64,000 nucleotides of DNA from a virus (Duplodnaviria; Caudoviricetes), in IMG/VR virus record IMGVR_UViG_3300043177_000122, positions 32,001 through 96,000 of that record. One strand, 5' to 3'. Both the position numbers and the translations under genes were made by a program. The notes under the pieces were generated by a model, which saw nothing but the letters and a program-made list of their open reading frames with translations, searched no databases and was not told the origin of the DNA. Below are positions 3,094 to 64,000 of the stretch, one piece after another. How positions within the stretch are numbered: the stretch's first letter is position 1; every line of letters begins with the position of its first letter.

Positions 3094-3948
3094 ATGAAAA
3101 AACTAGTGTGTGTTTGCTCGTTGCTTTTAGCAGCGATTGCAGTTGGATGTGGGTCTCAAGTAGTAGAGTTTGCTGAGGCCACCGGCAGCGATGCTGGTGC
3201 ACCCCCAACTCTTCTTGAGCCGCCTCCTACTGAGGGTTGTGTCGATCAGAACTGTCCTTTGGGACAAGCCTGTCGAGATGGAGTATGTACTGTAGTTGAT
3301 CCTTGTGAGGGAGTAGTTTGCCCTGAAGGTAATGTTTGCCGCGATGGTGCCTGCGTTGCAGTTGACCCATGTGCAGGTGTAATTTGTCCAGAAGGTTCTG
3401 TTTGTAAAGATGGAACTTGCACTCCAGTTGATCCTTGTGCTGGTGTAATTTGTCCAGAAGGCGCTCAATGCGTTGATGGTACTTGTGTAACTCCAGGCCC
3501 ATGTGCTGGTGTAGTTTGCGAAGCTGGTACTTGTGTTAACGGACAATGTGTTGTTCCAGAAACTGATGGTGGAACAGACAGTGGCCCAGTTGATCCATGT
3601 GTTGGAGTGGTATGTGATGGTGGTACTTGTGTCAATGGTCAATGTGTACCAAATGATCCATGTGCTGGCGTTACTTGCCCACCAAATTCTACCTGCCAGA
3701 ATGGAACCTGTACACCAGTTGATCCTTGTGCCGGAGTTCAGTGCCCTGAAAGCCGCGTCTGTCAAAACGGAGTTTGTGTATGTGATGGAGATCACGATGA
3801 TGATAAGGTTTGCCGTGAAGGTAAGACTCTAATTTGTCATCGTGCCGGTCCACATGGCAAGAAAGTACAACTATGTGTTGGTAATCCTGCTGTCAAGGCG
3901 CACTTGAAGCATGGTGATAAGGTTGGCGACTGCGACCTTTGCCACTGA
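3094..3948 (+). CDS. Cys-rich repeat lipoprotein, myxobacterial style
   Basis: Lipobox-like LAAIAVGC; about 8 four-Cys units DPCxGVxCPxGxxCxxGxC; C-terminal ICH...AHLKHGD..GDC module. Confidence 0.75.
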   Translation: MKKLVCVCSLLLAAIAVGCGSQVVEFAEATGSDAGAPPTLLEPPPTEGCVDQNCPLGQACRDGVCTVVDPCEGVVCPEGNVCRDGACVAVDPCAGVICPEGSVCKDGTCTPVDPCAGVICPEGAQCVDGTCVTPGPCAGVVCEAGTCVNGQCVVPETDGGTDSGPVDPCVGVVCDGGTCVNGQCVPNDPCAGVTCPPNSTCQNGTCTPVDPCAGVQCPESRVCQNGVCVCDGDHDDDKVCREGKTLICHRAGPHGKKVQLCVGNPAVKAHLKHGDKVGDCDLCH

Positions 3949-3968
3949 TCATTAGTTGTTGATGTAAA

Positions 3969-4006
3969 TGACCTATACCGTAAAAAGTGTAGGTCATTCT
4001 ATTTTT
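3969..4006 (+). terminator. Probable rho-independent terminator
   Basis: atgacctatac/gtgtaggtcat stem followed by a T-rich tract. Confidence 0.6.
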
Positions 4007-4021
4007 ACAGAATGGCACACC

Positions 4022-4050
4022 TTGACGGCGCCAAAAATAATGAATATACT
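4022..4050 (+). promoter_or_regulatory. sigma70-like promoter
   Basis: TTGACG-N17-TATACT upstream of ORF 4066 and the RNase P RNA. Confidence 0.65.
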
Positions 4051-4065
4051 ACTGAGTGAAAAGTT

Positions 4066-4395
4066 ATGAGCTTACCTTGGTCTCGAAATATGAAGCTGGA
4101 TCCTGGGACATTTGGAGGATCTCCTGCATGTCATGTTCTAGTTGATATGATGAATAACGATGTAATCCCTGTACAAGAGAAACATCGTGTATTGTCATTT
4201 ATTAATAGTGCCATTATACATTTCCAGGCCCTCTCAGATATAAAAAGTTATGGTATCCGTTCTTACGCAATGAATCTAATGAGAGATGATTTGTTCGCTA
4301 AAATTGATCGGATGGCTTATCCAGAGAAGTTTAATTCACACCTGAAAAACGTGTTGACTCACCATCTCAGGCGATACTTGAATGGAGCAATCTAG
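4066..4395 (+). CDS. Hypothetical protein; last codons overlap the 5' strand of RNase P helix P1
   Basis: ORF track; promoter directly upstream. Confidence 0.55.
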   Translation: MSLPWSRNMKLDPGTFGGSPACHVLVDMMNNDVIPVQEKHRVLSFINSAIIHFQALSDIKSYGIRSYAMNLMRDDLFAKIDRMAYPEKFNSHLKNVLTHHLRRYLNGAI

Positions 4396-4712
4396 ACAAT
4401 CGCTCCGTAAGGAGAGGAAAGTCGGAGCTACACAGGACAATCTGCTGGCTAACGGCCAGGCGTAGTGATACGACGGAAAGTGCAACAGAAAATAAACCGC
4501 CCGCAATGGTAAGGGTGAAATGGCAGTGTAAGAGACTACCGCATTTATAGTGATATAAATGGCAAGGTAAACCCCAGATGTAGCAAGCTAAACAGAGAGT
4601 GACTTGTCCGGTCAATACTCTCGGGTTAGTGCTGGAGCAGCTAAGCAATTAGTTGCCAAGATTAATGATTGTCTCGATTAATAGACAGGACTCCGCTTAT
4701 AGGATTACTCCA
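4383..4712 (+). ncRNA. rnpB: Bacterial-type RNase P RNA
   Basis: Conserved segments GAGGAAAGTC, GAAAGTGCAACAGA, GGTAAGGGTGAAA, GGTAAACCCC, AGCAAG and ACAG..CTCCGCTTA; P1 (TGGAGCAATCTA/TAGGATTACTCCA), P2 (GACAATCG/TGATTGTC), P3 (CTCC-GTAA-GGAG) and P4 (CGGAG/CTCCG) all pair. Confidence 0.92.
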
Positions 4713-4758
4713 TTCAAGTTCCTGTTTCTTGACAAATAACAAATATATAAGGATTATA

Positions 4759-5451
4759 ATGGCAGATAAAGTTACCACTGTTAGCGCAAAGGGTTGCGTT
4801 GTAACAGATTTTGACACGGCTACATTTGCACTCTCATTTAATGAGTTTGCCCCCAAAGCGAAGGACGCAAAACTTAAGTTAAAGAAAGGCACGGCAAAAA
4901 TTACTGCTGTGCTTGATGAGCTTAAGAAACGAGGCTTGGAGTTTTTGACGAATAATTATCGTAGTAATGTTACTGTACAACCAAACTACGTTTATGATCG
5001 CAATACTCATCAACAGAGATTAGAAGGACAGAAAGCTACTTATTCTGTTACATTCCAGACACCTACATTGGAAATGGTCAATGAAGCATACGATGTGCTT
5101 TCTGAGATTGAGGTTAATGAGTTGACCATCAATTCTCCTACCTATTCAGTTAGGTCTGAGGCGCAGTTCAAACAACAAGCTCTAGAAGATGCTTGGAAGG
5201 TTGCACAAGTTCTATTCGCAAACCAATGTAAAGTTCTTGGTTTTGATGAGAAAAAGTTCTCTGTTGATAGTTGGCAAGTTAACTATAGTGGTTATGACCA
5301 TGGTGGTTTTGCTAAGGGACGTAGCTATTCAAATGCTGTAATGGCAGGTGGTGCAGGTCCCGAAATGAGCGATGACGCTATTGAATTAAATGCGGGCCGT
5401 GCTATTATTGAAGTAGTTCTTACTGTCGATTACGTTCGTTCTGGATCATGA
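4759..5451 (+). CDS. SIMPL/DUF541-family protein
   Basis: Family-like layout (V.AKG.V.TDFDTA..., QQALEDAWKVA, I.LNAG...V.LTV); start moved to MADKV because the upstream part of the ORF is RNase P RNA. Confidence 0.65.
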   Translation: MADKVTTVSAKGCVVTDFDTATFALSFNEFAPKAKDAKLKLKKGTAKITAVLDELKKRGLEFLTNNYRSNVTVQPNYVYDRNTHQQRLEGQKATYSVTFQTPTLEMVNEAYDVLSEIEVNELTINSPTYSVRSEAQFKQQALEDAWKVAQVLFANQCKVLGFDEKKFSVDSWQVNYSGYDHGGFAKGRSYSNAVMAGGAGPEMSDDAIELNAGRAIIEVVLTVDYVRSGS

Positions 5452-6131
5452 AAATTAAGCTAGCCTATCCAAAAATTCCTGACACATTAGATTGCCCACT
5501 CAAGCAATGTATTGCGTTTGAGAAGCTAGATGGAACTAATCTGCATTGGCTTTGGAGTAAGGATAAAGGTTGGCATGCATTTGGAACTCGTCGAGATAGG
5601 TTTAACTTAGATGAACAAGGGATTGTTTCTTTCAATCAAGCTCACCCTGGTTTGGAAGAAGCAGTCTCTCTGTTCAATAAATCATATGCTCATCTTGAAG
5701 AATATCCAATCTCTCATAAGTATGGTCCCGGAGAGGTAATCTTATTCACTGAATTTTTAGGAAACAAATCTTTCGCGGGCAGCCATCAAAAAGATGATCC
5801 AAAAAGATTGGTCTTGTTTGATGTGCAAACTACTAATGGAATTATACCACCTGATCAATTTATAATTGATTTTGGACAATTTGAAGATATTCCTGAAAAT
5901 ACTTCTGGAAATAAAATTGCAGGTTTTCATATTCCTAAAATTGTTTTTTCTGGAAAGTTTTCCGGACAACTCTTTGTAGATGTAAGAAAAAACAAATTTA
6001 ATCTAAATGAAGGCGTGGTAGTTAAAGGGGTTTTTAGTGGTCAGATTTATATGGCTAAGATAAAAACAGAAGCCTATTTAGAGCGCCTGAAGAAAGAAAT
6101 GCCAAACGATTGGAAAAATTACTGGGAATGA
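5448..6131 (+). CDS. RNA ligase-like nucleotidyltransferase
   Basis: Motif I AFEKLDGTN, III FTEF, IIIa LFDV, IV EGVVVK, V MAKIK. Confidence 0.7.
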   Translation: MKIKLAYPKIPDTLDCPLKQCIAFEKLDGTNLHWLWSKDKGWHAFGTRRDRFNLDEQGIVSFNQAHPGLEEAVSLFNKSYAHLEEYPISHKYGPGEVILFTEFLGNKSFAGSHQKDDPKRLVLFDVQTTNGIIPPDQFIIDFGQFEDIPENTSGNKIAGFHIPKIVFSGKFSGQLFVDVRKNKFNLNEGVVVKGVFSGQIYMAKIKTEAYLERLKKEMPNDWKNYWE

Positions 6132-12904: not shown

Positions 12905-13318
12905 ATGGAAAGAATCTTCGACCAAGAACAGTTTGCTAAAAACATTTATGTTATTCGACATAAATTGGGCGAATTAAAAATAATCAGTGGTCATCGTTGG
13001 GAATATCAAGTAGGACAGTATACTGTCATCATTTATCCATATGATATTGGAGATGTCCCACCAGCCGATATTGACAACATTCTCAAGCGAGACAAGGTAA
13101 GTGTTGTGTTGAATGAGCGCTCTAAATTAGGAGTAGTTTCTAGTATATCTCTGCTTGATGATCCCAGATTCAAAAACTATGAGCCAATTCAATATAATGT
13201 CATTGAATCTCCTGGAGGCAGACTCAATTTAAGTAATGGGGATAATATGCCCATTCTTCATCTCTGTGAACTTATTCGTTATCTTCATCGTTTGTCAAAC
13301 CTAACAGCATTTATGTGA
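12905..13318 (+). CDS. Hypothetical protein
   Basis: ORF track. Confidence 0.55.
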   Translation: MERIFDQEQFAKNIYVIRHKLGELKIISGHRWEYQVGQYTVIIYPYDIGDVPPADIDNILKRDKVSVVLNERSKLGVVSSISLLDDPRFKNYEPIQYNVIESPGGRLNLSNGDNMPILHLCELIRYLHRLSNLTAFM

Positions 13319-13513
13319 GGAAATTATGGATATCTTGGATAATGAGAAGATATATCTGTTAGTTAAGGATTATCCTATCCGTGATGTTCTTGTTGCTTTA
13401 CAAACGGCAATTAATAAAAGAACAAATGAGCTAGTTGATCTGAATGATGGGCATTCAGATATAGCCAAAGAATTGAGTGTAGTTGCTCATCATTTAAGCA
13501 TCTTTGCAGGAAC

Positions 13514-14014
13514 ATGATTGCTATTCTTATTACAGCCATAGTTGCCTTCTTCGTTACCAGTTTATTTGGTTATGTGGCCCATCGATCATTACATCAACCT
13601 TGGACCGGAGAACTTAATAAGAAACATATGACTCATCATCTGACACTGTATCCACCTAGTGATTATGTTTCAGAGAAATATAGAAATGCAGGCACTGATA
13701 ATACAGTTATTACATTTTCTGTATTGTCAATACCAGTAGTGGCTACCCCAATTATTTTGGGGGTACTAGGTATATTGCCATTATCGCTAGTTATTACAGC
13801 TCTAGTTGTAATGGGTGTTATGGCATTTCTTCATAATTATATTCACGACGCTTTTCATATTAGAAACCATTTTCTAAGTCGAATTCCAGGACTTAGGAAT
13901 ATCTTTGCATACTGGAACCGCTTGCATTATCTACACCACGTTGATATGCAAAAGAACTTTGGAATCTTCTTATTCCATTGGGATCACGTCTTCAAAACAT
14001 TTTGGAAGAATTAA
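13514..14014 (+). CDS. Fatty acid hydroxylase / sterol desaturase family membrane protein
   Basis: His boxes HRSLH, HMTHH, HDAFH and HYLHH with transmembrane segments. Confidence 0.8.
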   Translation: MIAILITAIVAFFVTSLFGYVAHRSLHQPWTGELNKKHMTHHLTLYPPSDYVSEKYRNAGTDNTVITFSVLSIPVVATPIILGVLGILPLSLVITALVVMGVMAFLHNYIHDAFHIRNHFLSRIPGLRNIFAYWNRLHYLHHVDMQKNFGIFLFHWDHVFKTFWKN

Positions 14015-14045
14015 CATTTAGCTGTGGTAGGAAGGAGTAGTAACT

Positions 14046-14478
14046 ATGTCAACCTGGATTGTTCCGGATCTTTGCATCAACTGTGGTGCGTGTGAACCAG
14101 TATGTCCAAATCAGACCATCACTGATGGATCTGATGTTGGTGCAGACACGTTCTACATCCACCCAGATAAATGCACCGAATGTGTAGGTGAAGCGGATCA
14201 CGAGCAATGCCAGGCGGTTTGCCCGGTTGAGTGCTGTCTGCCTGACCCGAAGCACCTAGAGGACGAAGATACACTTGCGTCCCGTGCTATCACTACAAAA
14301 GATGTTACTCGAAGACCCAAGCCTTAAAGCATATACTGACCCAGAAACGTCTCAGACAATTCTGAAAGGTGCTGCCGGGTTTAGCTGGCGGGATATTAAT
14401 CAGGTACATCCGGGTATCTTTCCAGAAGATGTGCGGAAGCGACTTGATAGTTATTTCAAATTGAAAGCGTTTTGGTAA
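14046..14478 (+). CDS. 2[4Fe-4S] ferredoxin (YfhL-like), C-terminal extension probably frameshifted near 14285
   Basis: CINCGACEPVCP and CTECVG...CQAVCPVEC; ORF 14275..14478 continues in another frame. Confidence 0.8.
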
Positions 14479-15236
14479 TGATTTTGATTACACAGCCACG
14501 AGTTGGCACTTCTCATAATGAGATTCTTGCGTTACAGATTGCTGCCAGAGAAATGGGTTGGGATGTTCTCCCTGCGCCATCTGGTTGGCGTTTGGATGAT
14601 GAGTTGATCCAATCTGGTGTCAAAGGTGTACCTTATGGCTCTCAAACTTTCTGTGAGGTCATCGCCATGCAGATGGATTGGACTCTCAAGCAAAACTCTT
14701 TTGATTGGCTATCTAAGATTCATCCTGCCTATTTGAAGCGCAAGGTTGACTTCATGACGCTAGGTGAAGCTCAGAAGATTCAAGAGACCAAATTCATCAA
14801 GCCGGCTGACGATAAAGTCTTTTCGGCCAAGGTGTATGCGCCTGGCGAGCTTATTGTTCCAGAATCTGTTCCGTTGGATACTCCTACTCTAGTATCTGAG
14901 GTGGTTGAGTTTGATTTGGAATATCGAACTTTTGTGGATAAGCGAGTTCGTACTTGGTCTAACTACATCATGTACGACCATATTGCAGATCCAAAATTTT
15001 GGGACATGATTCCAATGGGTGAGGAACGCGAACCATATGAGTTTGTAAATGATATGCTTCACGACATGGAATTTCACGACATGGGCGGGTTGGTCACGGT
15101 TCCTAGCGTTATAGATGTTGGCAGAATCAAGGGTAAAGGTTGGGCAATCATTGAAACCAACCAGGCATGGGCATCTGGTATTTATGGGTGCAGCCCAATG
15201 TCAGTACTTAAAGTATTGGAGCAGTCCTGTGGATGA
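14478..15236 (+). CDS. ATP-grasp protein (R2K/DUF4343-like)
   Basis: FIKPADDKVF, VSEVVEF..EYRTFV, VIDVG.....WAIIETN. Confidence 0.75.
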   Translation: MILITQPRVGTSHNEILALQIAAREMGWDVLPAPSGWRLDDELIQSGVKGVPYGSQTFCEVIAMQMDWTLKQNSFDWLSKIHPAYLKRKVDFMTLGEAQKIQETKFIKPADDKVFSAKVYAPGELIVPESVPLDTPTLVSEVVEFDLEYRTFVDKRVRTWSNYIMYDHIADPKFWDMIPMGEEREPYEFVNDMLHDMEFHDMGGLVTVPSVIDVGRIKGKGWAIIETNQAWASGIYGCSPMSVLKVLEQSCG

Positions 15237-18745: not shown

Positions 18746-18820
18746 GGTCGATTAACTCAGCGGTAGAGTGACACGTTTACACCGTGTAAGTCGGGGGTTC
18801 GAATCCCTCATCGACTACCA
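18746..18820 (+). tRNA. tRNA-Val(TAC)
   Basis: Cloverleaf, CCA. Confidence 0.95.
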
Positions 18821-18823
18821 AAT

Positions 18824-18898
18824 TGGAGATTAGCTCAATGGTAGAGCGTCGGTTTTACACTCCGAAGATCTAGGGTTCGATTCCCTTATTTCCAACCA
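18824..18898 (+). tRNA. tRNA-Val(TAC), second copy
   Basis: Cloverleaf, CCA; minor stem mismatches. Confidence 0.85.
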
Positions 18899-18901
18899 TA
18901 T

Positions 18902-18975
18902 AGGCGATTAGCTCAATGGCAGAGCATCTGCTTGACTCGCAGGATACACGGGTTCGATTCCCCTATCGCCTACCA
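18902..18975 (+). tRNA. tRNA-Val(GAC)
   Basis: Cloverleaf, CCA. Confidence 0.88.
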
Positions 18976-22752: not shown

Positions 22753-23655
22753 ATGAGTAATACAGAGCTAATTAGAGAGCTAAGAGCATTGACGTCAGCA
22801 GGGATGAAAGACTGTAAGGATGCACTTGAAGAATCCAATTGGGATTTGCAAAAGGCTGTTGATATTGTTAAGGTGAAGGGCCTCAATATTGCTGACGGTC
22901 GTACTGGACGTGTAGCCTCTGAGGGGCGTGTTGGTACTGCTGATACCCAAGATGATAAGCTTTATGTAATGGCCGAAGTTAATTGTCAAACGGATTTCGT
23001 AGCTAACAGCAAAGAGTTCAGGAGTTTTACTATTCAAGTTTTATCTTCTATTATGGAGTCTCATTTGACTGGTCAGACATGGTCAGTTGATAAAGTGGAA
23101 GAACTTCGAAAAGAAATTGTATCAAAAACCAAAGAGAATGTTGTTATTCGTAGATGGTGGATTGAGGAATCTCAGTCGCCACTTGTTCGAGTTTTCTCGT
23201 ACAGGCATTCTACTAGTAAAATTGCTGTATTGGTTACACTTGTGGCCCCAAATGAAGCTGCTGCTGACTCCGCGGAGTTTAAGACTCTCGGAGAGGAGCT
23301 GGCAATGCAAATTGCTGCTATGAATCCAGTTGCAGTTGATGCCGAACGCATTCCACAAGACGAGAAGGATCGTCAAAAGGCAATTTTTGAGATGCAACTC
23401 AAAGAGGAAAATAAGCCAGAGAAAATGTGGGAAAAGATTATGGAAGGCAAGTTCCGTAAGTGGAACACAGAAGTTTGTTTGCTTGAGCAGGAGTCGGTAG
23501 TTATACCCAAGACGACTGTAAGACAAGTGATTAAGAATGTTGGAACTAAGTTGGGTGGAGAAATTCAAGTTGTGAATTTTGTTCGCTGCCAAGTTGGTGA
23601 AGGTATTGAAAAGAAACAAGACAACCTCGCTGAGGAAGTTTCTAAAATGATGTAA
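22753..23655 (+). CDS. tsf: Elongation factor Ts
   Basis: LRALTSAGMKDCKDAL, EVNCQTDFVA, LAMQIAAMNP, FVRCQVGEG; promoter TTGACT-N16-TACATT at 22704-22731. Confidence 0.97.
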   Translation: MSNTELIRELRALTSAGMKDCKDALEESNWDLQKAVDIVKVKGLNIADGRTGRVASEGRVGTADTQDDKLYVMAEVNCQTDFVANSKEFRSFTIQVLSSIMESHLTGQTWSVDKVEELRKEIVSKTKENVVIRRWWIEESQSPLVRVFSYRHSTSKIAVLVTLVAPNEAAADSAEFKTLGEELAMQIAAMNPVAVDAERIPQDEKDRQKAIFEMQLKEENKPEKMWEKIMEGKFRKWNTEVCLLEQESVVIPKTTVRQVIKNVGTKLGGEIQVVNFVRCQVGEGIEKKQDNLAEEVSKMM

Positions 23656-34069: not shown

Positions 34070-34531
34070 TGTGGCTTTTATTTCAAAGCAAGAACAGATG
34101 CAATTAAATCTTGAGCAACTAAAAGTTGTGGCTGTTTAACTGGTGATTTGATTTCATCTGGAAATAAACTATCAAATAATTTGGGAGCCATTAATTTAGT
34201 AAGAAGGCACTACAAACATAATGCAAAGAAAAGGGATTTAATTTTCAAGTTATCAGAAAAAGAATTTGAAAATTTCATATTTGGGAATTGTCATTATTGT
34301 GGGGCTGAGCCCAAATTAGTGAAATTTGCTAGTAGCTCTGAAAATAGAAGAGATAAAGAGATTATCTATAATGGTATAGATAGGATTAATAATTCTGTAG
34401 GATATGTATTGTCTAATTGTGTTACATGCTGTTCAATTTGTAATACAGCTAAATCTGATCTTTCATTTGAAGAATTTAATGATTGGATAAAAAGATTAGT
34501 GAGATATAATGGCCAACAAAAAAGTTTCTAA
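34070..34531 (+). pseudogene. HNH-type homing endonuclease with a disrupted N-terminus
   Basis: KSCGC, CHYCG, NGIDRINNSVGY..SNCVTCCSICN; no open start upstream. Confidence 0.7.
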
Positions 34532-36998
34532 ATTTCCGCCTAAACGTCCAGACAATTCACATATAATTAAAGCAAGATCGAAACATGACTGGTCAGATTA
34601 TCAGAAAGCAATTTTTCAAGATATTGCAAAGGGGAAAGATCACACTGTTGTAATTGCTAGGGCTGGCAGTGGGAAAACAAGCACTATTGTTGAAGGTTTT
34701 AGATATATTCCAAAAGGAACGAAAACTCTCATGGTTGCTTTTAATAAAAGTATAGCCGAGGAGTTAAAACAACGAGCCGCATCTTATATTGATGTAATGA
34801 CTCTTCATTCTTTGGGATTCAGAGCTATTAAACAAAGTTTTGGAACTGATGTTATTCTAGAGAATGACAAATGTAATATGCTTATCTCCACACTAATTGG
34901 AGATGATCGGGATATGTGGGAAGTGAATCAGAGCATTGCAAAGTGTGTTTCTCTTTGTAAGGGTTTTCTTGTAGATACTCCATCTAAAGTTGGAGATTTG
35001 ATTGACAAGTTTGGAATCGAAATATTCGATTATTCTAGAGAGAAATTTACTGAATTAGTCCTCAAGACATTAGCTTTGTGCAAAGCAAAGAAAAATGTCA
35101 TTGATTTTGACGATATGATTTGGTTTCCCTTCGTTTATCGTTTAAACGTAGGGAAATTCGATGTTGTTTTTGTTGACGAAGCTCAGGATCTAAATCAGGC
35201 ACAAATTGCCATGGTGTTATCGGCTTGTAAAGTAGATGGTCGCATTATTGCAGTTGGAGACCCGGCGCAATGTGTTGATGAAAATACTATGGTAAATGTT
35301 GACGGAGGTTGGGCTTCCGTTAAAGATTGTAAAGTTGGACAATATATACTTTGCTATAATAATAGCAAATTAGATAGTAAAAAAATTATCAACAAAGTAA
35401 AATCTAATTGGGAATATGGTTATGAAATAACAACGTATTCTGGTAAGAAATTATTGATGTCCCCGAACCATAAGATTTGGGCGTCTGCACCAATGCTTGA
35501 CGAACAATATATTGTTTATTTGATGTATAGACCAGATTTAGGTTTTAGAGTAGGTAAAACTAATACGTGGAAGGATACAAATTATCCATTTGGTTTAAGA
35601 GCTAATTCTGAAAATGCAACCAAACTTTGGGTTCTTGATATTGCAAACTCTAATGAAGAAGCTCTGTTATTGGAAGAGCAGTATTCTTTAAGATATAAAA
35701 TTCCTACATCTGTATTTAATGGTGAACATAGAAATATCAATCAAGAAAGATTAAATACAATTTTTGCAGAGTTTGGAAAAAATGGACACTTTCTTCTTAA
35801 AGATAAAAATCTGCATTTTGCATACCCACATTGGATGGCTTCCTCTAATTCTAAAATCAATAGAAGAACTGTTAGGGTAAATGCTCATTCTAAAAAAGGA
35901 ACTCAAGTAACTTTGGAGTGGAAAGACGACGCTTTAGATAAAGTGTTTATGAAACATGGGGTTATCTTTTCTAAAGGCAAGAATTCAAGAATTAGAAAAT
36001 ACTTCTCTGATTATACTAGCGCCTTATCGTTTGCAGGAATGATTGCACAACTTTCTGGCGGAGAAGTTAACGAAAGATTATCGATTAATGATAATCCATA
36101 TTTGATTACCGCATCAGGTCTTCATGTTGGAATGAAAGTATATTCTTTACTTAAAAATCAACTTGTTGATGATATGATTATCAGTATAGATAAAAAATCC
36201 GGCTCATTTTATGATTTGGAAGTAGAAGAATCGGCCAATTTCATTGGTAATAATATTCTGAGCCACAATTCTATTTACCAGTTCCGAGGAGCTGATAGTG
36301 AGGCTATTCCAAACTTTATTGATAAGCTTAAAGCCAAAACTTTACCATTGTCCGTTACCTACCGCTGTCCGATCAAGGTGGTAGACCTAGCGAAGGAAAT
36401 TGTACCTGACATTGAGGCGGCCGAGAATGCCAAGGATGGGGTGGTAGAAGAGGTTCCAGCAGAACAATTTCTTAAATTGGTTAGGCCGGGGGACTTTGTG
36501 CTCTCTAGGACGAACGCCCCTTTGATTAAACACTGTATGGCTTTGCTAAAAGCAGGGGTACCAGCCAATATTCAAGGAAGAGATGTTGGCGCCAATCTAC
36601 AATATTTCATTAAAAAATCCAAATCAAAGACTATTGTTCAATTTACAGAATATGTAAATGCATGGAGAGAACAAGAAGTTAAGCGACTATTGGCTGAGAA
36701 AAAAGATCCAATTGCAACTATCGATAAAGCAGAATGTTTATTGAACCTCTGTGAAGGAACCCTTACTATTAAGGACCTAAAAGAGACAATAGAAAAGCTG
36801 TTCAACGATGTTAATGATACTGCTAAAGTTATTTTTTCAACAACACATAAAGCCAAAGGTTTGGAACGCGATAGAGTCTTTGTTCTCACCAACACCTACC
36901 GAAAAGGAGCCGGAGGAGAAGAAGACAACCTCTGGTATGTCGCGGTAACTCGTAGTAAATCTGAGTTGTACCTGGTAAAGAAATACTTGAAGCAATAA
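34509..36998 (+). CDS. UvrD/Rep-type SF1 helicase containing an intein
   Basis: ARAGSGKT, DEAQD, GDPAQ|SIYQFRGA, YRCP, THKAKGLE, YVAVTR. Confidence 0.93.
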   Translation: MANKKVSKFPPKRPDNSHIIKARSKHDWSDYQKAIFQDIAKGKDHTVVIARAGSGKTSTIVEGFRYIPKGTKTLMVAFNKSIAEELKQRAASYIDVMTLHSLGFRAIKQSFGTDVILENDKCNMLISTLIGDDRDMWEVNQSIAKCVSLCKGFLVDTPSKVGDLIDKFGIEIFDYSREKFTELVLKTLALCKAKKNVIDFDDMIWFPFVYRLNVGKFDVVFVDEAQDLNQAQIAMVLSACKVDGRIIAVGDPAQCVDENTMVNVDGGWASVKDCKVGQYILCYNNSKLDSKKIINKVKSNWEYGYEITTYSGKKLLMSPNHKIWASAPMLDEQYIVYLMYRPDLGFRVGKTNTWKDTNYPFGLRANSENATKLWVLDIANSNEEALLLEEQYSLRYKIPTSVFNGEHRNINQERLNTIFAEFGKNGHFLLKDKNLHFAYPHWMASSNSKINRRTVRVNAHSKKGTQVTLEWKDDALDKVFMKHGVIFSKGKNSRIRKYFSDYTSALSFAGMIAQLSGGEVNERLSINDNPYLITASGLHVGMKVYSLLKNQLVDDMIISIDKKSGSFYDLEVEESANFIGNNILSHNSIYQFRGADSEAIPNFIDKLKAKTLPLSVTYRCPIKVVDLAKEIVPDIEAAENAKDGVVEEVPAEQFLKLVRPGDFVLSRTNAPLIKHCMALLKAGVPANIQGRDVGANLQYFIKKSKSKTIVQFTEYVNAWREQEVKRLLAEKKDPIATIDKAECLLNLCEGTLTIKDLKETIEKLFNDVNDTAKVIFSTTHKAKGLERDRVFVLTNTYRKGAGGEEDNLWYVAVTRSKSELYLVKKYLKQ
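35271..36269 (+). mobile_element. Intein (333 aa) in helicase motif III
   Basis: C1 (CVDEN), block B SPNH, block F YDLEV, terminal HN followed by Ser+1; excision restores GDPAQSIYQFRGA. Confidence 0.93.
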
Positions 36999-39789: not shown

Positions 39790-40117
39790 AAGTCAAATTA
39801 GAAAAGAACGCAAACGAAAACGTTTTAAACAAAAGAAAATAAACACTAAGCTAAAGAAGAAATTGTTTGGTCATCTGTTTATGGCGCCCTGTATTTATTG
39901 TAGGCGGGCCTTTTTATTATCTACATTAACAGTTGAACACATTACGCCATTATGCCTTGGTGGAACCAATGATCCATCTAATATTGCATTGGCATGCTTT
40001 CCTTGCAATAATGATAAGGGAAGAGAAGCTTGGTTCCAAAAACGTGAATTTAATAAGAAACACTATGAACAATATCACTCACAGTATCGAATTGAAAATT
40101 GGGAAAGGATTATATAG
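39782..40117 (+). CDS. HNH endonuclease
   Basis: CIYC...TVEHITPLCLGGTNDPSNIALACFPCN. Confidence 0.8.
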   Translation: MSKSQIRKERKRKRFKQKKINTKLKKKLFGHLFMAPCIYCRRAFLLSTLTVEHITPLCLGGTNDPSNIALACFPCNNDKGREAWFQKREFNKKHYEQYHSQYRIENWERII

Positions 40118-41132
40118 GAACCCAGCACACCCTTTGTGTATTGTCAAAGAGATGGTTTTTGATTATTTTGAAGATTTATCACGAATCGAAATTGATAATC
40201 CATATGTGCCTATTGAATATAATTTCGATAGACTACGTGTACCTACCGATCATCCTTCAAGACGTCCAACTGATACCTACTACAAGGATGATAAGAACTG
40301 CCTCCGCACCCATATGACATGTTATTTATATCCATTTGGGAAATCAGATACTGGTCAAAGTAAGCTTAAGTATATTACATGTGGTGACGTCTATCGAAAA
40401 GATACTATTGATGCTACACATTATCCAGTGTTCCATCAGATGGATGCATTTTGTATGGTTCCAGATGATGTAGATGTAAGGCAAGATTTGCGCAATAGGT
40501 TGCAAGGTTTAGTAAAACATCTTTTTGGCGAAAGCACAGAATGTCAGTTCTTAGAAGATTCAGAATATGAAGAGGTTTACTTTCCTTTTACAATTGATTC
40601 TGTCGAAGTGAGTGTTTCTTTACCGGATGAGCATGGCAAAATTAAACAACTAGAAATTTTAGGAGCAGGAACTGTCCATCCCGACATTATGGCCGATCTT
40701 GGTTTGCCAGGTAAAAAAGCGTGGGCTTTTGGTTTAGGTCTAGAAAGATTAGCTATGGTTATGTTCGGCATTCCTGATATTAGATTATTTTGGAGCACAG
40801 ATAAAAGATTTTTAAGTCAATTTACGCCGGGCAAGATTACCAAATTTAATCCTTACTCAAAATATGAGTCATGTTATAAAGACATTTCATTTTTCTTAAG
40901 TGAAAAATTTTCTTATAACGACCTCTGCTCTATCGCTAGAGATGAAGATGAGAACAACATAATTGAATCTATTTCATTGATTGATGAGTTCCAGGTTAAA
41001 GGCCGAACTTCGCAGTGTTATAGAATTACATATCGCTCCATGGATGGTACGTTACGAAACTCTGATGTAAATACAATTCAAAAATCAATCAGAGACCGAA
41101 TTATCCAAGAGCTAGGAGTAGAAGTAAGATGA
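40065..41132 (+). CDS. pheS: Single-chain (organelle-type) phenylalanyl-tRNA synthetase: catalytic domain plus FDX-ACB
   Basis: LRTHMT, GDVYRKDTIDATHYPVFHQMD, FPFT, AFGLGLERLAM..FGIPDIRLFW, then SKY..CYKDISF...SQCYRITYRSMD.TL anticodon-binding domain. Confidence 0.92.
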   Translation: MNNITHSIELKIGKGLYRNPAHPLCIVKEMVFDYFEDLSRIEIDNPYVPIEYNFDRLRVPTDHPSRRPTDTYYKDDKNCLRTHMTCYLYPFGKSDTGQSKLKYITCGDVYRKDTIDATHYPVFHQMDAFCMVPDDVDVRQDLRNRLQGLVKHLFGESTECQFLEDSEYEEVYFPFTIDSVEVSVSLPDEHGKIKQLEILGAGTVHPDIMADLGLPGKKAWAFGLGLERLAMVMFGIPDIRLFWSTDKRFLSQFTPGKITKFNPYSKYESCYKDISFFLSEKFSYNDLCSIARDEDENNIIESISLIDEFQVKGRTSQCYRITYRSMDGTLRNSDVNTIQKSIRDRIIQELGVEVR

Positions 41133-49567: not shown

Positions 49568-51064
49568 ATGAGTTTACCTGTCATTAAGGACCAATCCGTT
49601 ATTGATCGTATTAAAGTTGTAGAGTCTGTCAAGGGATGGACTTTAAACTTTACTGACATTGTAAATAACAACAACAAGTTCTATAATCTTGAAGTTGTGA
49701 AATCGTCAGATAATAGTTTCTATCTGTATACTGTGTATGGAAGAGTTGGAGCTAGCGGTGCTAAAGAGTATCGCGCTTGTTCTTCTCTTGCTCAGGCAGA
49801 AAAAGAAGCTGAAAGCATTATCAAATCCAAGAACAAAAAGGGATATATTGAAGTTAAACTTGCTAAAGCAGATGTTGGGTCTGAACAAGGTAAAGAGAAA
49901 GTGGATATTTCTGTTACCGTTGAGTCTTTGAAAAAGGCTGGCGTTCAAGTAAAAGAGGAGCCGCAAGTTGCAAGCAAATTGCACCCCGAGGTTCAAGATC
50001 TAGTTCGTACTTGGTTCGGTGTTACACAAGAGTTCGTCGAGTTGAACTTGGATACTAAGAAGTGCCCGCTTGGTCAATTATCTCTTGATCAGATTGATAA
50101 AGCCAAACAGATTCTTGGTGAAGCAACCAAGATTGTTAATCTCAAGAAACCAGATGTTGATGAGCTTAACAGTTTGACTAGCCAATACTACTCTAACATT
50201 CCACACGTACTCCCACATAGAATTAATGCCGATCTTCTGCGCTTTGATGATATGGCAAAGATTACTAAAGCACAAGATATTCTTGATGTCTTTGCAGATG
50301 CTAAAAATGTTCAAGCAGTTATTTCCAAGAAAAGCGCTGTAGATTCACAGTACGCAACCTTAAACGCTGGACTTGAGTATGTAGAACCTACCGATCCAAC
50401 TTGGAAATGGCTTGAGGCAATGGTTCATGAAACCCGCGCTTCAAATCACTCTGGTTTAGGTAAGATTAAAGTTCATAAAATCTTCAAACTTGCTCGTAAT
50501 GATGAGCAAAAACATTTTCTTGAGACGGCTGGTAAGATTGCCAAAGAATGTGGAAATTGGAATCCCTCTCCAATCTACTCTAACTTGGTTAAGAGGCGCC
50601 CTGATGTTCCGAAGGAGTTACAAGAGCTTTATGCTAAAGCTAACATCCTTCCAGGTTGGCACGGCACTCGTAGAGCCAATATGATTGGTATTACTACTAA
50701 AGGGTTGTTGATTCGCCCATCTGGTGTTATCCATGCGGGGTCTATGTATGGTGATGGTATTTATTGGGCCGTTCATAGCACTAAGTCTATTAATTATTGT
50801 GATGTCAAAGGCTCTTACTGGGCTCAGGGTGCTAATAAAACCGCTTATCTCTTCTTAGGAGACGTAGCCTTCGGTAATCAAAAAATGGCTGGCGGATCCT
50901 ACATGTATACCAAGAAGAACATTGCTCCAAACCATTCGGTGTGGGCCAAGTCTGGTGGTTGCTCAGGTCTATACAACGATGAGCTGATTACATATACTGC
51001 ATCTGGTCATGGCCAACAGCATGTACTTCGTTATATCATCGAATTTGAAACGCAGGCTCGCTAA
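49568..51064 (+). CDS. Poly(ADP-ribose) polymerase-like protein: WGR, regulatory and catalytic domains
   Basis: FYNLEV...YGRVG (WGR); SKLHPEVQ...PLGQLS...YYSNIPH (PARP_reg); WHGT, GSMYGDGIYWA, YNDELITY (H-Y-E triad). Confidence 0.93.
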   Translation: MSLPVIKDQSVIDRIKVVESVKGWTLNFTDIVNNNNKFYNLEVVKSSDNSFYLYTVYGRVGASGAKEYRACSSLAQAEKEAESIIKSKNKKGYIEVKLAKADVGSEQGKEKVDISVTVESLKKAGVQVKEEPQVASKLHPEVQDLVRTWFGVTQEFVELNLDTKKCPLGQLSLDQIDKAKQILGEATKIVNLKKPDVDELNSLTSQYYSNIPHVLPHRINADLLRFDDMAKITKAQDILDVFADAKNVQAVISKKSAVDSQYATLNAGLEYVEPTDPTWKWLEAMVHETRASNHSGLGKIKVHKIFKLARNDEQKHFLETAGKIAKECGNWNPSPIYSNLVKRRPDVPKELQELYAKANILPGWHGTRRANMIGITTKGLLIRPSGVIHAGSMYGDGIYWAVHSTKSINYCDVKGSYWAQGANKTAYLFLGDVAFGNQKMAGGSYMYTKKNIAPNHSVWAKSGGCSGLYNDELITYTASGHGQQHVLRYIIEFETQAR

Positions 51065-60588: not shown

Positions 60589-60664
60589 GGCCCATTCGTC
60601 TAATGGTTTAGGACGGCAGCCTCTCACGTTGCTAATACGGGTTCGAACCCCGTATGGGTCGCCA
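60589..60664 (+). tRNA. tRNA-Glu(CTC)
   Basis: Cloverleaf, CCA. Confidence 0.93.
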
Positions 60665-60670
60665 GCATAC

Positions 60671-60745
60671 GCCTCTGTAGTCTAAGGGATAGGCACTCGC
60701 CTTCTAAGCGATTTAATGTAGGTTCGAATCCTACCAGAGGTGCCA
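60671..60745 (+). tRNA. tRNA-Arg(TCT)
   Basis: Cloverleaf, CCA. Confidence 0.9.
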
Positions 60746-60758
60746 AGTAAGTGTTTAT

Positions 60759-60834
60759 GCGTCTGTAATTCAATGGATAGAAATTTTGCCTTCTAAGCAA
60801 AAAGTTTGGGGTTCGAGTCCCTCCAGACGTGCCA
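60759..60834 (+). tRNA. tRNA-Arg(TCT), second copy
   Basis: Cloverleaf, CCA. Confidence 0.92.
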
Positions 60835-60838
60835 AAAT

Positions 60839-60922
60839 GTTACTGTAACCTAATGGAGAGGTATCGGTCTACGAAACCGAAGCGCAAGCTAAATGCAGGT
60901 TCGAATCCTGCCAGTGACGCCA
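60839..60922 (+). tRNA. tRNA-Arg(ACG) with a 14-nt hairpin variable arm
   Basis: Loop CT-ACG-AA; variable region AGC-GCAA-GCT-AAAT; A20; CCA. Confidence 0.88.
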
Positions 60923-60925
60923 AAT

Positions 60926-61001
60926 GGGTCTGTAGCTCAATGGATAGAGCACTCCGCTACGAACGGAACGGTTGAAGGTTCAACTCCTTTCAGACCCGCC
61001 A
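60926..61001 (+). tRNA. tRNA-Arg(ACG)
   Basis: Cloverleaf, CCA. Confidence 0.93.
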
Positions 61002-61006
61002 ATTAT

Positions 61007-61082
61007 GTCTCCATAACTCAATGGATAGAGTACTTCGCTTCGAACGAAGAAGTTGTAGGTTCAAGTCCTACTGGAGATGCCA
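61007..61082 (+). tRNA. tRNA-Arg(TCG)
   Basis: Cloverleaf, CCA. Confidence 0.93.
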
Positions 61083-61530: not shown

Positions 61531-62490
61531 ATGAGAATTCTGTCGGGTATACAACCGTCAGGAACAATTCACATCGGCAACTATTTTGGAATGATCAAGC
61601 CCTTGGTCGATTTACAAGGTAAGGGAGAAGTGTATTGTTTCCTTGCGGATTATCATTCAATGACATCATTGTTTGATGCAAAAGAACGTAAAGCAAATTC
61701 AATTGAAGCAGCAACTACACTGCTAGCGTGTGGCATGGATCCTAAAACTGTTTTGTTTCGACAGTCAGATAGTCAGTCAGTGACTGAGCTAGCATGGATG
61801 CTTTCTACTGTAACTCCAATGGGCCTTTTAGAAAGGTGTCATAGTTACAAAGATAAAACTTCTAAAGGCATCCCAACCAATCATGGTTTGTTTGCTTATC
61901 CTGTTTTGATGGCGGCTGATATCCTACTATACCAATCTAATTTGGTACCAGTAGGAAAAGATCAACTTCAGCATTTGGAAGTGACGCGAGATATTGCCGT
62001 CAAGTTCAATACTACGTATGGGGAAATATTTACACTCCCCGAGCCCTATATTCAAGAAGCGGTAGCAACTGTTCCTGGAACTGATGGACAGAAGATGTCT
62101 AAAAGTAATGGTAACACTATCGAAATCTTTGGAGATGAAAAAGTTCTTAAGAAAAAGATAATGTCTATTGTGATGGATAGCCGCTCGCTGGCCACGCCAA
62201 AACCAGATGCAGATAAGAATATTGCAATTCAACTTCTAAAATTAGTAGCTCCGATGAATGTTGCTGAAGAATATGAAATGGAATTGCGAGATGGCTATCT
62301 TGGTTATGGTCAGCTTAAGAATGTTCTATTCGAACAATATTTTAGTTATTTTGAGAAACCAAGAGCATTGTATCAGGAATTGAAGAAGAATCCGGACTAT
62401 GTAGAGCAAATTCTTCAAGAAGGTGCAGAACATGCCCGCTATCAAGCCCATCGTACGATGGAAAAAGTAAGAGAAGTAGTGGGTTTATGA
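61531..62490 (+). CDS. trpS: Tryptophanyl-tRNA synthetase
   Basis: SGIQPSG..HIGN, YPVLMAADIL, VPVGKDQ.QH.E.TRD, KMSKS. Confidence 0.97.
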   Translation: MRILSGIQPSGTIHIGNYFGMIKPLVDLQGKGEVYCFLADYHSMTSLFDAKERKANSIEAATTLLACGMDPKTVLFRQSDSQSVTELAWMLSTVTPMGLLERCHSYKDKTSKGIPTNHGLFAYPVLMAADILLYQSNLVPVGKDQLQHLEVTRDIAVKFNTTYGEIFTLPEPYIQEAVATVPGTDGQKMSKSNGNTIEIFGDEKVLKKKIMSIVMDSRSLATPKPDADKNIAIQLLKLVAPMNVAEEYEMELRDGYLGYGQLKNVLFEQYFSYFEKPRALYQELKKNPDYVEQILQEGAEHARYQAHRTMEKVREVVGL

Positions 62491-62932: not shown

Positions 62933-63616
62933 ATGAATAAATTAGTTGTATTTGATATCGCTGGCACCACAATTGAAGACAATGATGCGGTTGGTCAAGC
63001 TTTTTTGAAAGCTTTTTTATCGTTCGGGTTAAATCCAACCACTGAACAAATTAATAATGTGATGGGACTATCCAAACCACAATCTATCAAGATTATTCTG
63101 AAAGAGCTAGATAACACTACTCCAATTGCTGAAATACACGATCAGTTTTTAAAGAATATGATTGAGCATTATAGTCTTGATGAAAATATAAAAGAAATAC
63201 CTGGAGCTGCTGAAACATTCAACACCCTACATGAAATGGACTATTATGTAGCTCTTGATACTGGATTTAGTCGAGACATTACAAATATCATTCTAGATAA
63301 GCTAGGATGGGTTAACCAAGGATTAGTAGATGCTGTTGTTAGCAGCGATCAAGTCAAATATGGAAGACCTTATCCATATATGATATTCAAGTTAATGGAG
63401 ACGCTCCATATCAAAAGCGTCCATGATGTTGTAAAAGTTGGCGATACTGTCGCCGATATTTATGAAGGTTTAAATGCTGGGTGTGATGTAGTAATAGGCG
63501 TCACTACTGGAACAGAGACTAAACAATCTTTCAAAGAAAAATTATCCGGGTGTCACTACTGTGTAATGGATGACATTACAGAAGTGCCCGCTTGTTTACA
63601 TTACACTCCTATTTGA
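62933..63616 (+). CDS. HAD-family hydrolase (phosphonatase-like)
   Basis: FDIAGT, DTG, GRPYPYMI, KVGDT..DI.EG. Confidence 0.88.
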   Translation: MNKLVVFDIAGTTIEDNDAVGQAFLKAFLSFGLNPTTEQINNVMGLSKPQSIKIILKELDNTTPIAEIHDQFLKNMIEHYSLDENIKEIPGAAETFNTLHEMDYYVALDTGFSRDITNIILDKLGWVNQGLVDAVVSSDQVKYGRPYPYMIFKLMETLHIKSVHDVVKVGDTVADIYEGLNAGCDVVIGVTTGTETKQSFKEKLSGCHYCVMDDITEVPACLHYTPI

Positions 63617-63623
63617 GGAAGTC

Positions 63624-64000
63624 ATGTCTAATATATTCGAAGATTTGGAGCAGCGTGGTTTGATTAAACAAACAACCAACGCAGATAAGTTGCGTCAACT
63701 ATTTAACTCAAATACTCCAGTCACGTTTTACATTGGATTTGACCCCACTTCTGATAGTTTACATATAGGCCACTTACTTCAAGTAGTAACAGCTAAGCGA
63801 CTAGTCCAAGCTGGGCATCGAGCTATCATGTTAGTTGGCGGAGCAACCGCTTTGATTGGAGATCCGACAGGCAAGTCAGAAATGCGAAAAATGCTTTCTC
63901 ATTCTGATATTAGGGTAAATGGTGAAGCCATCGGCGCCCAGATTCAAAAAATAATGGGAAGAGAAATTGAATTAGTCAATAACCTAACTTGGTTTGATGA
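63624..64000 (+). CDS. tyrS: Tyrosyl-tRNA synthetase (5' part; runs off the window, so absent from the ORF track)
   Basis: RBS GAGGA; EQRGLIKQ, YIGFDPTSDSLHIGHL, LVGGATALIGDPTGKSEMRK. Confidence 0.95.
   Translation, partial: MSNIFEDLEQRGLIKQTTNADKLRQLFNSNTPVTFYIGFDPTSDSLHIGHLLQVVTAKRLVQAGHRAIMLVGGATALIGDPTGKSEMRKMLSHSDIRVNGEAIGAQIQKIMGREIELVNNLTWFD

Follow-up and report, generated by a model that had tools for sequence, protein, structure and literature searches.

Can a virus own the catalytic RNA of ribonuclease P (RNase P), the enzyme that trims transfer RNA (tRNA) precursors, as a working gene, and if so, with which protein would that RNA act? The question is raised by a 64,000-nt stretch of DNA, referred to here at its full length as the window, which comprises bases 32001-96000 of a 358,993-bp IMG/VR virus record (IMGVR_UViG_3300043177_000122) with an estimated completeness of 83% (CheckV). 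Few ribozymes are universal; RNase P RNA is one of them and counts as a hallmark of cells and organelles. Full-text literature searches brought up no description of such an RNA encoded by a virus. An initial annotation of the window, made from the sequence alone, had proposed an RNase P RNA of about 330 nt with the conserved segments, nested in the end of an open reading frame (ORF), ORF 4066. We conclude, with a probability of roughly 75%, that this locus represents a functional gene of the rnpB type, passed on within a phage lineage, and that its RNA works with the host protein subunit, RnpA, on phage tRNA precursors.

Identity of the RNA was established by scanning the whole window with Rfam 15 (cmscan, gathering threshold), which places a class-A RNase P RNA of 332 nt at 4384-4715 on the plus strand. 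The match to RF00010 (RNaseP_bact_a) is very strong, scoring 270.8 bits against a gathering score of 100 with an E value of 2.8e-87, and extends over model positions 1-367 of 367; among the clan members overlapping at this site, class A is the best match and was kept. The proposed RNA is thus borne out at essentially its predicted length, while the wider span of 4022-4712 assigned to it takes in promoter, ORF and RNA, the RNA proper being 4384-4715. Only one copy is present in the 358,993-bp record. When the covariance-model alignment is read against the sequence, all of the class-A helices P1-P18 are readable, the principal elements being the following.

4384-4394 with 4700-4711, plus strand: helix P1, 11 pairs with one C-A mismatch.
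4395-4401 with 4667-4673, plus strand: helix P2, from the covariance-model alignment.
4403-4414, plus strand: minimal P3, a CUCC/GGAG stem of 4 bp capped by the GNRA tetraloop GUAA.
4414-4427, plus strand: conserved region I and the 5' strand of P4, GAGGAAAGUCGGAG, with U4422 bulged.
4419-4427 with 4691-4698, plus strand: P4 pseudoknot, eight pairs, with U4422 bulged.
4435-4438 with 4606-4609, plus strand: P6 pseudoknot, from the covariance-model alignment.
4497-4514, plus strand: shortened P12, 5 pairs, with a loop containing GCAA.
4623-4627, plus strand: 3' side of internal loop L15, GGGUU including the GGU motif.
4684-4699, plus strand: conserved region V and the 3' strand of P4, GACAGGACUCCGCUUA.

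Helices P5, P7, P8, P10, P11, P13, P15, P16 and P17 are also present, P9 and P14 are each capped by GUGA, and P18 is capped by GCAA. Conserved regions I to V are all found (GAGGAAAGUC at 4414-4423, ACAGAAA at 4485-4491, AAGGGUGAAA / GUAAGAG at 4511-4534, AGAUUAAUG at 4659-4667 and ACAGGACUCCGCUUA at 4685-4699) and are largely invariant across seven phage RNAs. Elements specific to class A are represented by the P6 pseudoknot with P16/P17, by P13/P14 and by P18, with P13, P14, P16, P17 and P18 covarying; class-B RNAs are characterized by P5.1, P10.1 and P15.1. In the class-A M1 RNA of Escherichia coli, the L15 GGU motif pairs with the tRNA 3' RCCA, and the corresponding GGGT does not vary among the seven phage RNAs aligned. 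The minimal P3, predicted earlier as CTCC-GTAA-GGAG, is found as such, and covaries in relatives to CUGC/GCAG, GAUAG/CUAUC and AAUG/CAUU. Judged by sequence and predicted fold, window positions 4384-4715 are a full member of the bacterial class-A, rnpB-type RNase P RNAs.

Compensatory change in the P4 helix had been claimed from the sequence alone. The 5' strand of P4 reads A4419, A4420, G4421, bulged U4422, C4423, G4424, G4425, A4426 and G4427, paired with C4691-U4698, and differs from the consensus CCGGG/CCCGG by two compensated pair changes, C-G to G-C and G-C to A-U. The compensation is real, and other compensated P4 variants occur in related phage RNAs: across all viral RNAs the 5' strand is found as CCGGG, CGGAG, CGGCG, CCGAG, CGGGA, CAGGA, CGGGG or CCGGA, and the 3' strand matches in all those shown except L005, in which the terminal P4 pair is C-U (L numbers denote individual viral loci).

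With respect to the bacterial class-A RNA (E. coli M1, rnpB), the window RNA therefore has the same full-length model match, helices P1-P18, P4 and P6 pseudoknots, P13/P14, GNRA loops on P9, P14 and P18, conserved regions I-V and L15 GGU. Unlike the bacterial RNA, it is encoded by a phage in whose genome no cognate rnpA was found, its 5' end overlaps a protein-coding gene, and it is compact, with 332 nt, a 4-bp P3, a very short P12 and a rare P4 carrying two compensated changes. A minus-strand ORF of 93 amino acids (aa) at 4367-4648, wholly within the RNase P RNA gene, was rejected as an artefact of the structured RNA. More generally, ORFs overlapping RNase P RNA seem 'conserved' across unrelated contigs only through conservation of the RNA, an annotation artefact.

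Selection on the structure was assessed in an alignment of seven phage RNAs, comprising the window, relatives and L018, onto which the Rfam structure, P4 and P6 were mapped and the pairs counted. Standard pairs occupy 95.7% of cells, a share that drops to 31-40% if the 3' partners are displaced by 1-3 columns, and changes on both sides are observed in 57 of 101 pairs, compared with 8-13 after displacement. None of 500 shuffles reached any of the observed pairing measures. P4 is paired in 100% of cells in the seven sequences, two of its positions covarying. In a nucleotide comparison of the window with L032, identity amounts to about 90% for the RNA and to 73-84% for the genes beside it. This pattern of substitution shows the structure of the window RNA to be under selection, and the compensatory changes, combined with an RNA more conserved than its flanking genes, rule out a dead passenger or contamination.

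The DNA surrounding the RNA is that of a phage. Markers elsewhere on the contig include the large terminase subunit TerL (phrog_675, 1.2e-57), a portal protein (3.6e-50), a prohead-protease-like domain and a tail sheath, and the long ORFs of the record lie nearly all on one strand. TerL is at most 27% identical to that of any GenBank phage and therefore provides neither a cultured relative nor a host lead. No near match to the RNase P RNA region was found among GenBank phages, there being only five matches to the window RNA, all partial, at 67-80% identity and located on metagenomic records without annotation. A look-up of public runs indicated that two freshwater metagenome DNA runs, which may be its source, contain the whole stretch, other runs sharing only small portions of it, probably conserved cores. 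On these gene contents and comparisons, the record is a huge tailed phage without a cultured relative.

To find related RNAs, IMG/VR was scanned with exact patterns for three blocks conserved in RNase P RNA. This returned 26 viral contigs, all 26 of which were confirmed by Rfam to carry class-A RNase P RNA. Many of them, 94-279 kb in size, have the RNA embedded in a dense tRNA array, and a transfer-messenger RNA (tmRNA) is additionally encoded on two. The RNAs of five scan contigs are 73-89% identical to that of the window and four more contigs were reached through homologues of ORF 4066; the ten relatives, with RNA identities of 69-89%, are L017 (the same contig as L032), L035, L034, L007, L008, L014, L013, L036 and L033. 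L017, the closest of them, belongs to a contig of 490,849 bp. Genes for an HNH protein, an OmpA-domain protein, a SIMPL/DUF541 protein and an RNA ligase flank the RNA in common in the window and its relatives, the last of these being represented in the window by the following gene.

5448-6131, plus strand: RNA-ligase-like gene (PF09414), Pfam 3.4e-07, phrog_548 3.5e-11.

Homologues of this ligase lie close to the 3' side of the RNA in L007, L008, L013, L014, L032, L033 and L035; none was called in L034 or L036. In a maximum-likelihood tree the relatives and L018 form one group with support of 90/93, apart from the other viral RNAs and from two bacterial RNAs of metagenome-assembled genomes (MAGs). 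As read from this tree and from the shared gene order, the RNase P RNA is inherited vertically within a phage lineage whose members are huge (about 360-490 kb), tailed and uncultivated.

These comparisons also bear on whether the RNA is simply bacterial DNA, brought in as host contamination, by chimeric assembly, as a prophage flank or as a recent passenger in decay. IMG/VR labels L017 and L025 'provirus', and several of the 26 contigs, GC-rich and without tRNA arrays, may represent host flanks, both of which would fit such an origin. However, the same RNA occurs in the same gene neighbourhood in at least 10 independent assemblies from different samples, and in the record it is situated 36 kb inside a contig bearing phage structural genes, with phage genes on both sides. 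The RNA is also the best-conserved local segment and has undergone extensive compensatory change. Searching about 185,000 species genomes for the exact pattern of the window P4 variant yielded only three, a Rickettsiales MAG contig, an Actinomycetota MAG and an unclassified MAG, the RNAs of which are only about 60% identical to the window RNA and no closer than any other, and thus no donor emerges. A bacterial source of this DNA is already contradicted by these data and is hardly credible.

Variation in the size of the RNA was observed among the related contigs. The P12 site is enlarged by an insertion in L034 (about 35 nt) and in L036 (about 170 nt). In L036 the RNase P RNA (3329-3831) is 503 nt long, and its P12 insertion appears to hold a Shine-Dalgarno-like AGGA followed by an ATG-initiated hydrophobic ORF of about 46 codons; the insertion could, from its sequence, be a small membrane-peptide gene within a ribozyme gene. 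In L033, whose RNA measures 441 nt, P12 is extended by about 20 nt, and a larger insertion of about 85 nt is found on its 3' side, near P13. A 25-kb, GC-rich IMG/VR contig, L015, gives two RNase P RNA matches, at 311-658 and 12978-13349, with 114.9 and 272.2 bits, respectively, the weaker of which may be a degraded or divergent second copy.

Which protein might accompany the RNA was addressed by searching for rnpA. As proposed initially, the window contains none, and the absence extends to the whole 358,993-bp record as searched with PF00825, as well as to five other large RNase-P-bearing virus records, two of which are 90-95% complete; the same search found rnpA in 10 bacterial genomes used as a control. 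Nor was a protein family beside the RNA common to different phage RNase P groups detected by all-against-all BLASTP of 31 sources (30 loci and the first 10 kb of the window), the only matches between groups being spurious ORFs overlapping the RNA gene. As no rnpA was found, use of host RnpA would be the simplest and best model.

The presumed substrates are the tRNAs of the phage itself. ARAGORN detects 57 tRNA genes in the whole record, all 57 on the plus strand, 25 of which are in the window, fewer than the 27 initially counted there; the Rfam scan of the window gives 24 tRNA matches. The picture of a large, tightly packed set holds with respect to the number of genes and the short spacers, but not with respect to arrangement, as the tRNAs are distributed in several clusters, the nearest about 4 kb from the RNase P RNA on each side, and no single array surrounds the RNA. 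Spacers between tRNAs are 16 nt or less in 18 of 56 cases, many being 3-6 nt and seven exactly 3 nt. The 3' CCA is encoded in 52 tRNA genes as called and in three more after a 1-4-nt shift of the 3' end, giving 55 of 57. T stands at position -1 in 39 of 57 genes (68%), an excess over its frequency of 0.30 in the genome (p = 2.5e-9), and U is what bacterial RNase P prefers at this position. The tRNA-His gene encodes a G at -1 opposite C73, as in bacteria. Two clusters in the window illustrate these features.

18746-18975, plus strand: three tRNA-Val genes with encoded CCA and 3-nt spacers (ARAGORN), presumed substrate.
60589-61082, plus strand: one tRNA-Glu and five tRNA-Arg genes with encoded CCA and 3-13-nt spacers (ARAGORN), presumed substrate.

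Features of the tRNA genes also help to judge whether the RNA has a different role altogether, either as a decoy titrating RnpA or another host factor off host RNase P, or as a processor of other phage RNAs such as mRNAs, Y-RNA-like or tRNA-like RNAs. In the absence of a phage rnpA any holoenzyme must draw on the host protein pool, and the genome encodes a Ro60 homologue, which is compatible with other substrates. A pure protein sponge, however, needs none of conserved regions I-V, the bulged U of P4 or the L15 GGU, all of which are kept under selection, and the tRNA genes have the features preferred by a class-A enzyme, encoded CCA and U at -1. We regard this decoy or alternative-substrate role as quite improbable.

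Two adjacent tRNA genes at record coordinates 144353-144509 have the anticodon CUA and are thus amber suppressors. Among the 326 plus-strand ORFs of at least 100 aa, only 18, including ORF 4066, end in TAG. Combined, the CUA tRNAs and the rarity of TAG stops may reflect TAG recoding during part of the infection cycle.

How the RNA would be transcribed is indicated by the elements preceding it.

3967-3998, plus strand: terminator-like hairpin with a T run from a consensus scan, 12-pair stem, tail CTATTTTTAC.
4022-4050, plus strand: sigma-70-type promoter-like site TTGACG-17-TATACT from a consensus scan, 10 of 12 matches.
4066-4395, plus strand: ORF 4066, encoding a 109-aa protein with an isoelectric point (pI) of 9.5 and a predicted four-helix bundle.

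The hairpin, whose sequence is also present in L032, separates the upstream gene from the unit formed by ORF 4066 and the RNase P RNA. The promoter-like site corresponds to the sigma-70 promoter claimed earlier upstream of ORF 4066, and both its -35 and -10 hexamers are kept in L032 and L035. The pattern TTGAC[AGT]-N16-18-TA[TC]A[ACT]T occurs 15 times on the plus strand of the record and 3 times on the minus strand, one occurrence ending 13 nt before a tRNA-Ala gene and another 14 nt before the tRNA-Thr cluster. In L008, L033 and L034 a different conserved motif, GGAAACTT(T/C)CGTACCCT, precedes the ORF 4066 homologue, and the same motif stands directly before the RNase P RNA in L014, which has no such ORF. 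This placement, before the ORF where there is one and directly before the RNA where there is none, supports ORF 4066 and the RNA as one transcription unit. The motif upstream in relatives, GGAAACTTTCGTACCCTAT, is absent from the genome of the window. No hexamer pair conserved among relatives was found inside ORF 4066 that could serve as an internal promoter for the RNA, suggesting that the mature 5' end probably arises by processing, a step that would cut the ORF 4066 stop codon off its message. From these signals, ORF 4066 and the RNA are most likely one unit transcribed from a host-type sigma-70 promoter. A further promoter-like site, at 4729-4757, was rejected because its '-10' runs into the translation start of the following gene, namely the Shine-Dalgarno sequence and the ATG at 4759. 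In the relatives, a promoter-like motif GGAAACTT(T/C)CGTACCCTAT followed by a T-rich run is observed at L008:5290-5374, L033:3930-4000, L034:3930-4000 and, on the minus strand upstream of the RNA, in L014; it does not occur in the genome of the window and may represent a phage-specific promoter class.

ORF 4066 and the RNA physically overlap, as had been claimed, the last three sense codons and stop of the ORF (GGA GCA ATC TAG, TAG at 4393-4395) forming the 5' strand of P1. Homologues of the protein fall into 56 clusters, all of about 109 aa and unnamed, and share the invariant motif GTFGG-PACH...EKHRVLSF. Differences between the window and L032 are distributed 27/14/50 over the three codon positions, a third-position bias, and by this measure ORF 4066 is a real gene. 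AlphaFold2 predicts four helices and no strands with a mean pLDDT (predicted local distance difference test score) of 86.4. No significant match to the protein was obtained in Pfam, PHROGs, the PDB (profile and Foldseek searches), the Foldseek AlphaFold database (AFDB) clusters or the ESM Atlas; against PDB and AFDB none reached E <= 0.001 and RnpA is not among the matches listed. The all-helical predicted fold and the lack of an RnpA match indicate that the ORF 4066 protein is not RnpA-like. In all seven contigs of the ORF 4066 family with readable DNA (the window, L032 (= L017), L008, L033, L034, L035 and L036) the RNA starts within or just after the last ORF 4066 codons, and some homologues of the ORF read on into the RNA gene. 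In L007, L013 and L014, conversely, the RNase P RNA has no upstream ORF 4066 homologue, and the link is therefore tight but not obligatory.

This linkage is the basis for ORF 4066 as a candidate partner, which had been suggested from the sequence. In its full form, the proposal is that the phage has its own RNase P, in which the ribozyme is co-expressed with and bound by the four-helix ORF 4066 protein from the same transcript, a cofactor unrelated to RnpA that replaces it and makes the viral holoenzyme independent of the host. The position of the RNA at the end of ORF 4066 in 7/7 contigs, retained even where other neighbours are rearranged, the homologues that run on into the RNA gene, and a basic (pI 9.5), conserved (56 clusters) protein of RnpA-like size are all consistent with such a role. 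These observations are offset by the three relatives that keep the RNA without the ORF and by a predicted bundle that is not the alpha/beta fold of RnpA. Furthermore, Pfam, PHROGs, PDB and AFDB give no link to RNA binding, no protein family beside the RNA is common to the different phage RNase P groups, and adjacency among close phages can be plain synteny. The tight linkage thus stands while the partnership itself is unlikely. Were it true, 5' maturation of the phage tRNAs would be independent of the host enzyme, and through the overlap of stop codon and P1 the translation of the cofactor would be tied to the folding of the RNA or to its release.

Cooperation of the phage RNA with host RnpA is the reading that we prefer, and in outline it would proceed as follows. 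The RNase P RNA would be co-transcribed with ORF 4066 from a promoter of the sigma-70 type that would also drive the phage tRNA clusters, would be cut from the ORF 4066 transcript, and would fold into the standard class-A architecture. It would then assemble with RnpA of the host, because the phage is without rnpA, and the holoenzyme would remove the 5' leaders and short spacers from the precursors of the 57 phage tRNAs. The benefit would be extra capacity for 5' maturation when phage tRNAs are transcribed at a high level or when host RNA synthesis is shut down. Several points weigh against this scheme. The record is 83% complete, so that rnpA is possible in the remainder, and a very divergent rnpA could slip past the Pfam model. 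That the host has RnpA, or a class-A enzyme at all, is an assumption. P3 is much shorter than in most bacteria, which may affect how a bacterial RnpA binds. The 5' end of the RNA lies inside ORF 4066 with no separate promoter evident, and among the public runs listed no RNA run contains the stretch.

Related systems place this gene in context. Huge phages of >200 kb are described as carrying tRNA, tmRNA and translation-factor genes (Al-Shayeb et al. 2020, as cited in PMC8172020). The phage of the window resembles them in its host-like translation genes, including 57 tRNAs, phenylalanyl-tRNA synthetase (PheRS), tryptophanyl/tyrosyl-tRNA synthetase (TrpRS/TyrRS)-type enzymes and elongation factor Ts (EF-Ts). 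For the circular megaphages that it describes, PMC8172020 reports no Rfam RNAs other than tRNAs and a tmRNA. Unlike those megaphages, the phage described here adds a ribozyme of the tRNA-maturation pathway. Phage T4, the classical example of a phage that has tRNA genes and depends on its host for RNase P, likewise produces clustered tRNA precursors which need the enzyme, but their 5' maturation is performed wholly by the host enzyme, whereas the window phage supplies the catalytic subunit itself. Organelles provide a second parallel, as rnpB is retained in the plastids of glaucophytes and red algae and in some mitochondria, where the RNA gene is kept and the protein partner is provided in trans by another genome, as proposed for the phage. 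Unlike organelles, which are bacterial descendants, the carrier here is a virus, and its RNA, as judged from sequence, is complete and not reduced in catalytic competence.

The novelty lies in the phage carrier and its syntenic lineage, in the small size of P3 and P12, and in the way the RNA is fused to the end of ORF 4066. The parts of the translation system known from viruses extend with this gene from tRNAs, tmRNA, synthetases and factors to the catalytic RNA of tRNA maturation, which suggests that 5' processing can limit a phage expressing dozens of tRNAs. The locus offers a testable case of a hybrid enzyme of viral RNA and host protein, and compact natural RNase P RNAs, with short P3 and P12, tolerated P12 insertions and a rare compensated P4, are useful for structure-function work. 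A match to rnpB no longer marks a contig as cellular.

Other translation- and RNA-related genes of the record comprise three aminoacyl-tRNA synthetases, EF-Ts (22753-23655), RNase HII, a Ro60 homologue and CCA-adding-type enzymes. The PheRS-like gene (39933-41132) encodes a single chain with a class II core and an FDX-ACB domain, a layout which is that of mitochondrial PheRS. Class-I W/Y (TrpRS/TyrRS-type) synthetase genes are found complete at 61531-62490 and, as the start of a second, at 63570-63998 at the end of the window. The Ro60 homologue is a 541-aa ORF with TROVE (Ro60) domain matches at record coordinates 13335-14960, preceded by a sigma-70-type promoter at 13281. Two nucleotidyltransferases of PF01743, the CCA-adding/poly(A) polymerase family, are encoded at record positions 231519-232763 (minus strand) and about 202024-202419 (plus strand), although nearly all of the phage tRNA genes already encode CCA. 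A 498-aa protein (49568-51064) combines a WGR domain with the regulatory and catalytic domains of poly(ADP-ribose) polymerase (PARP), giving a phage protein with a eukaryote-like PARP architecture, and a UvrD-type helicase (34509-36998) is split by an intein splicing domain at residues 284-587.

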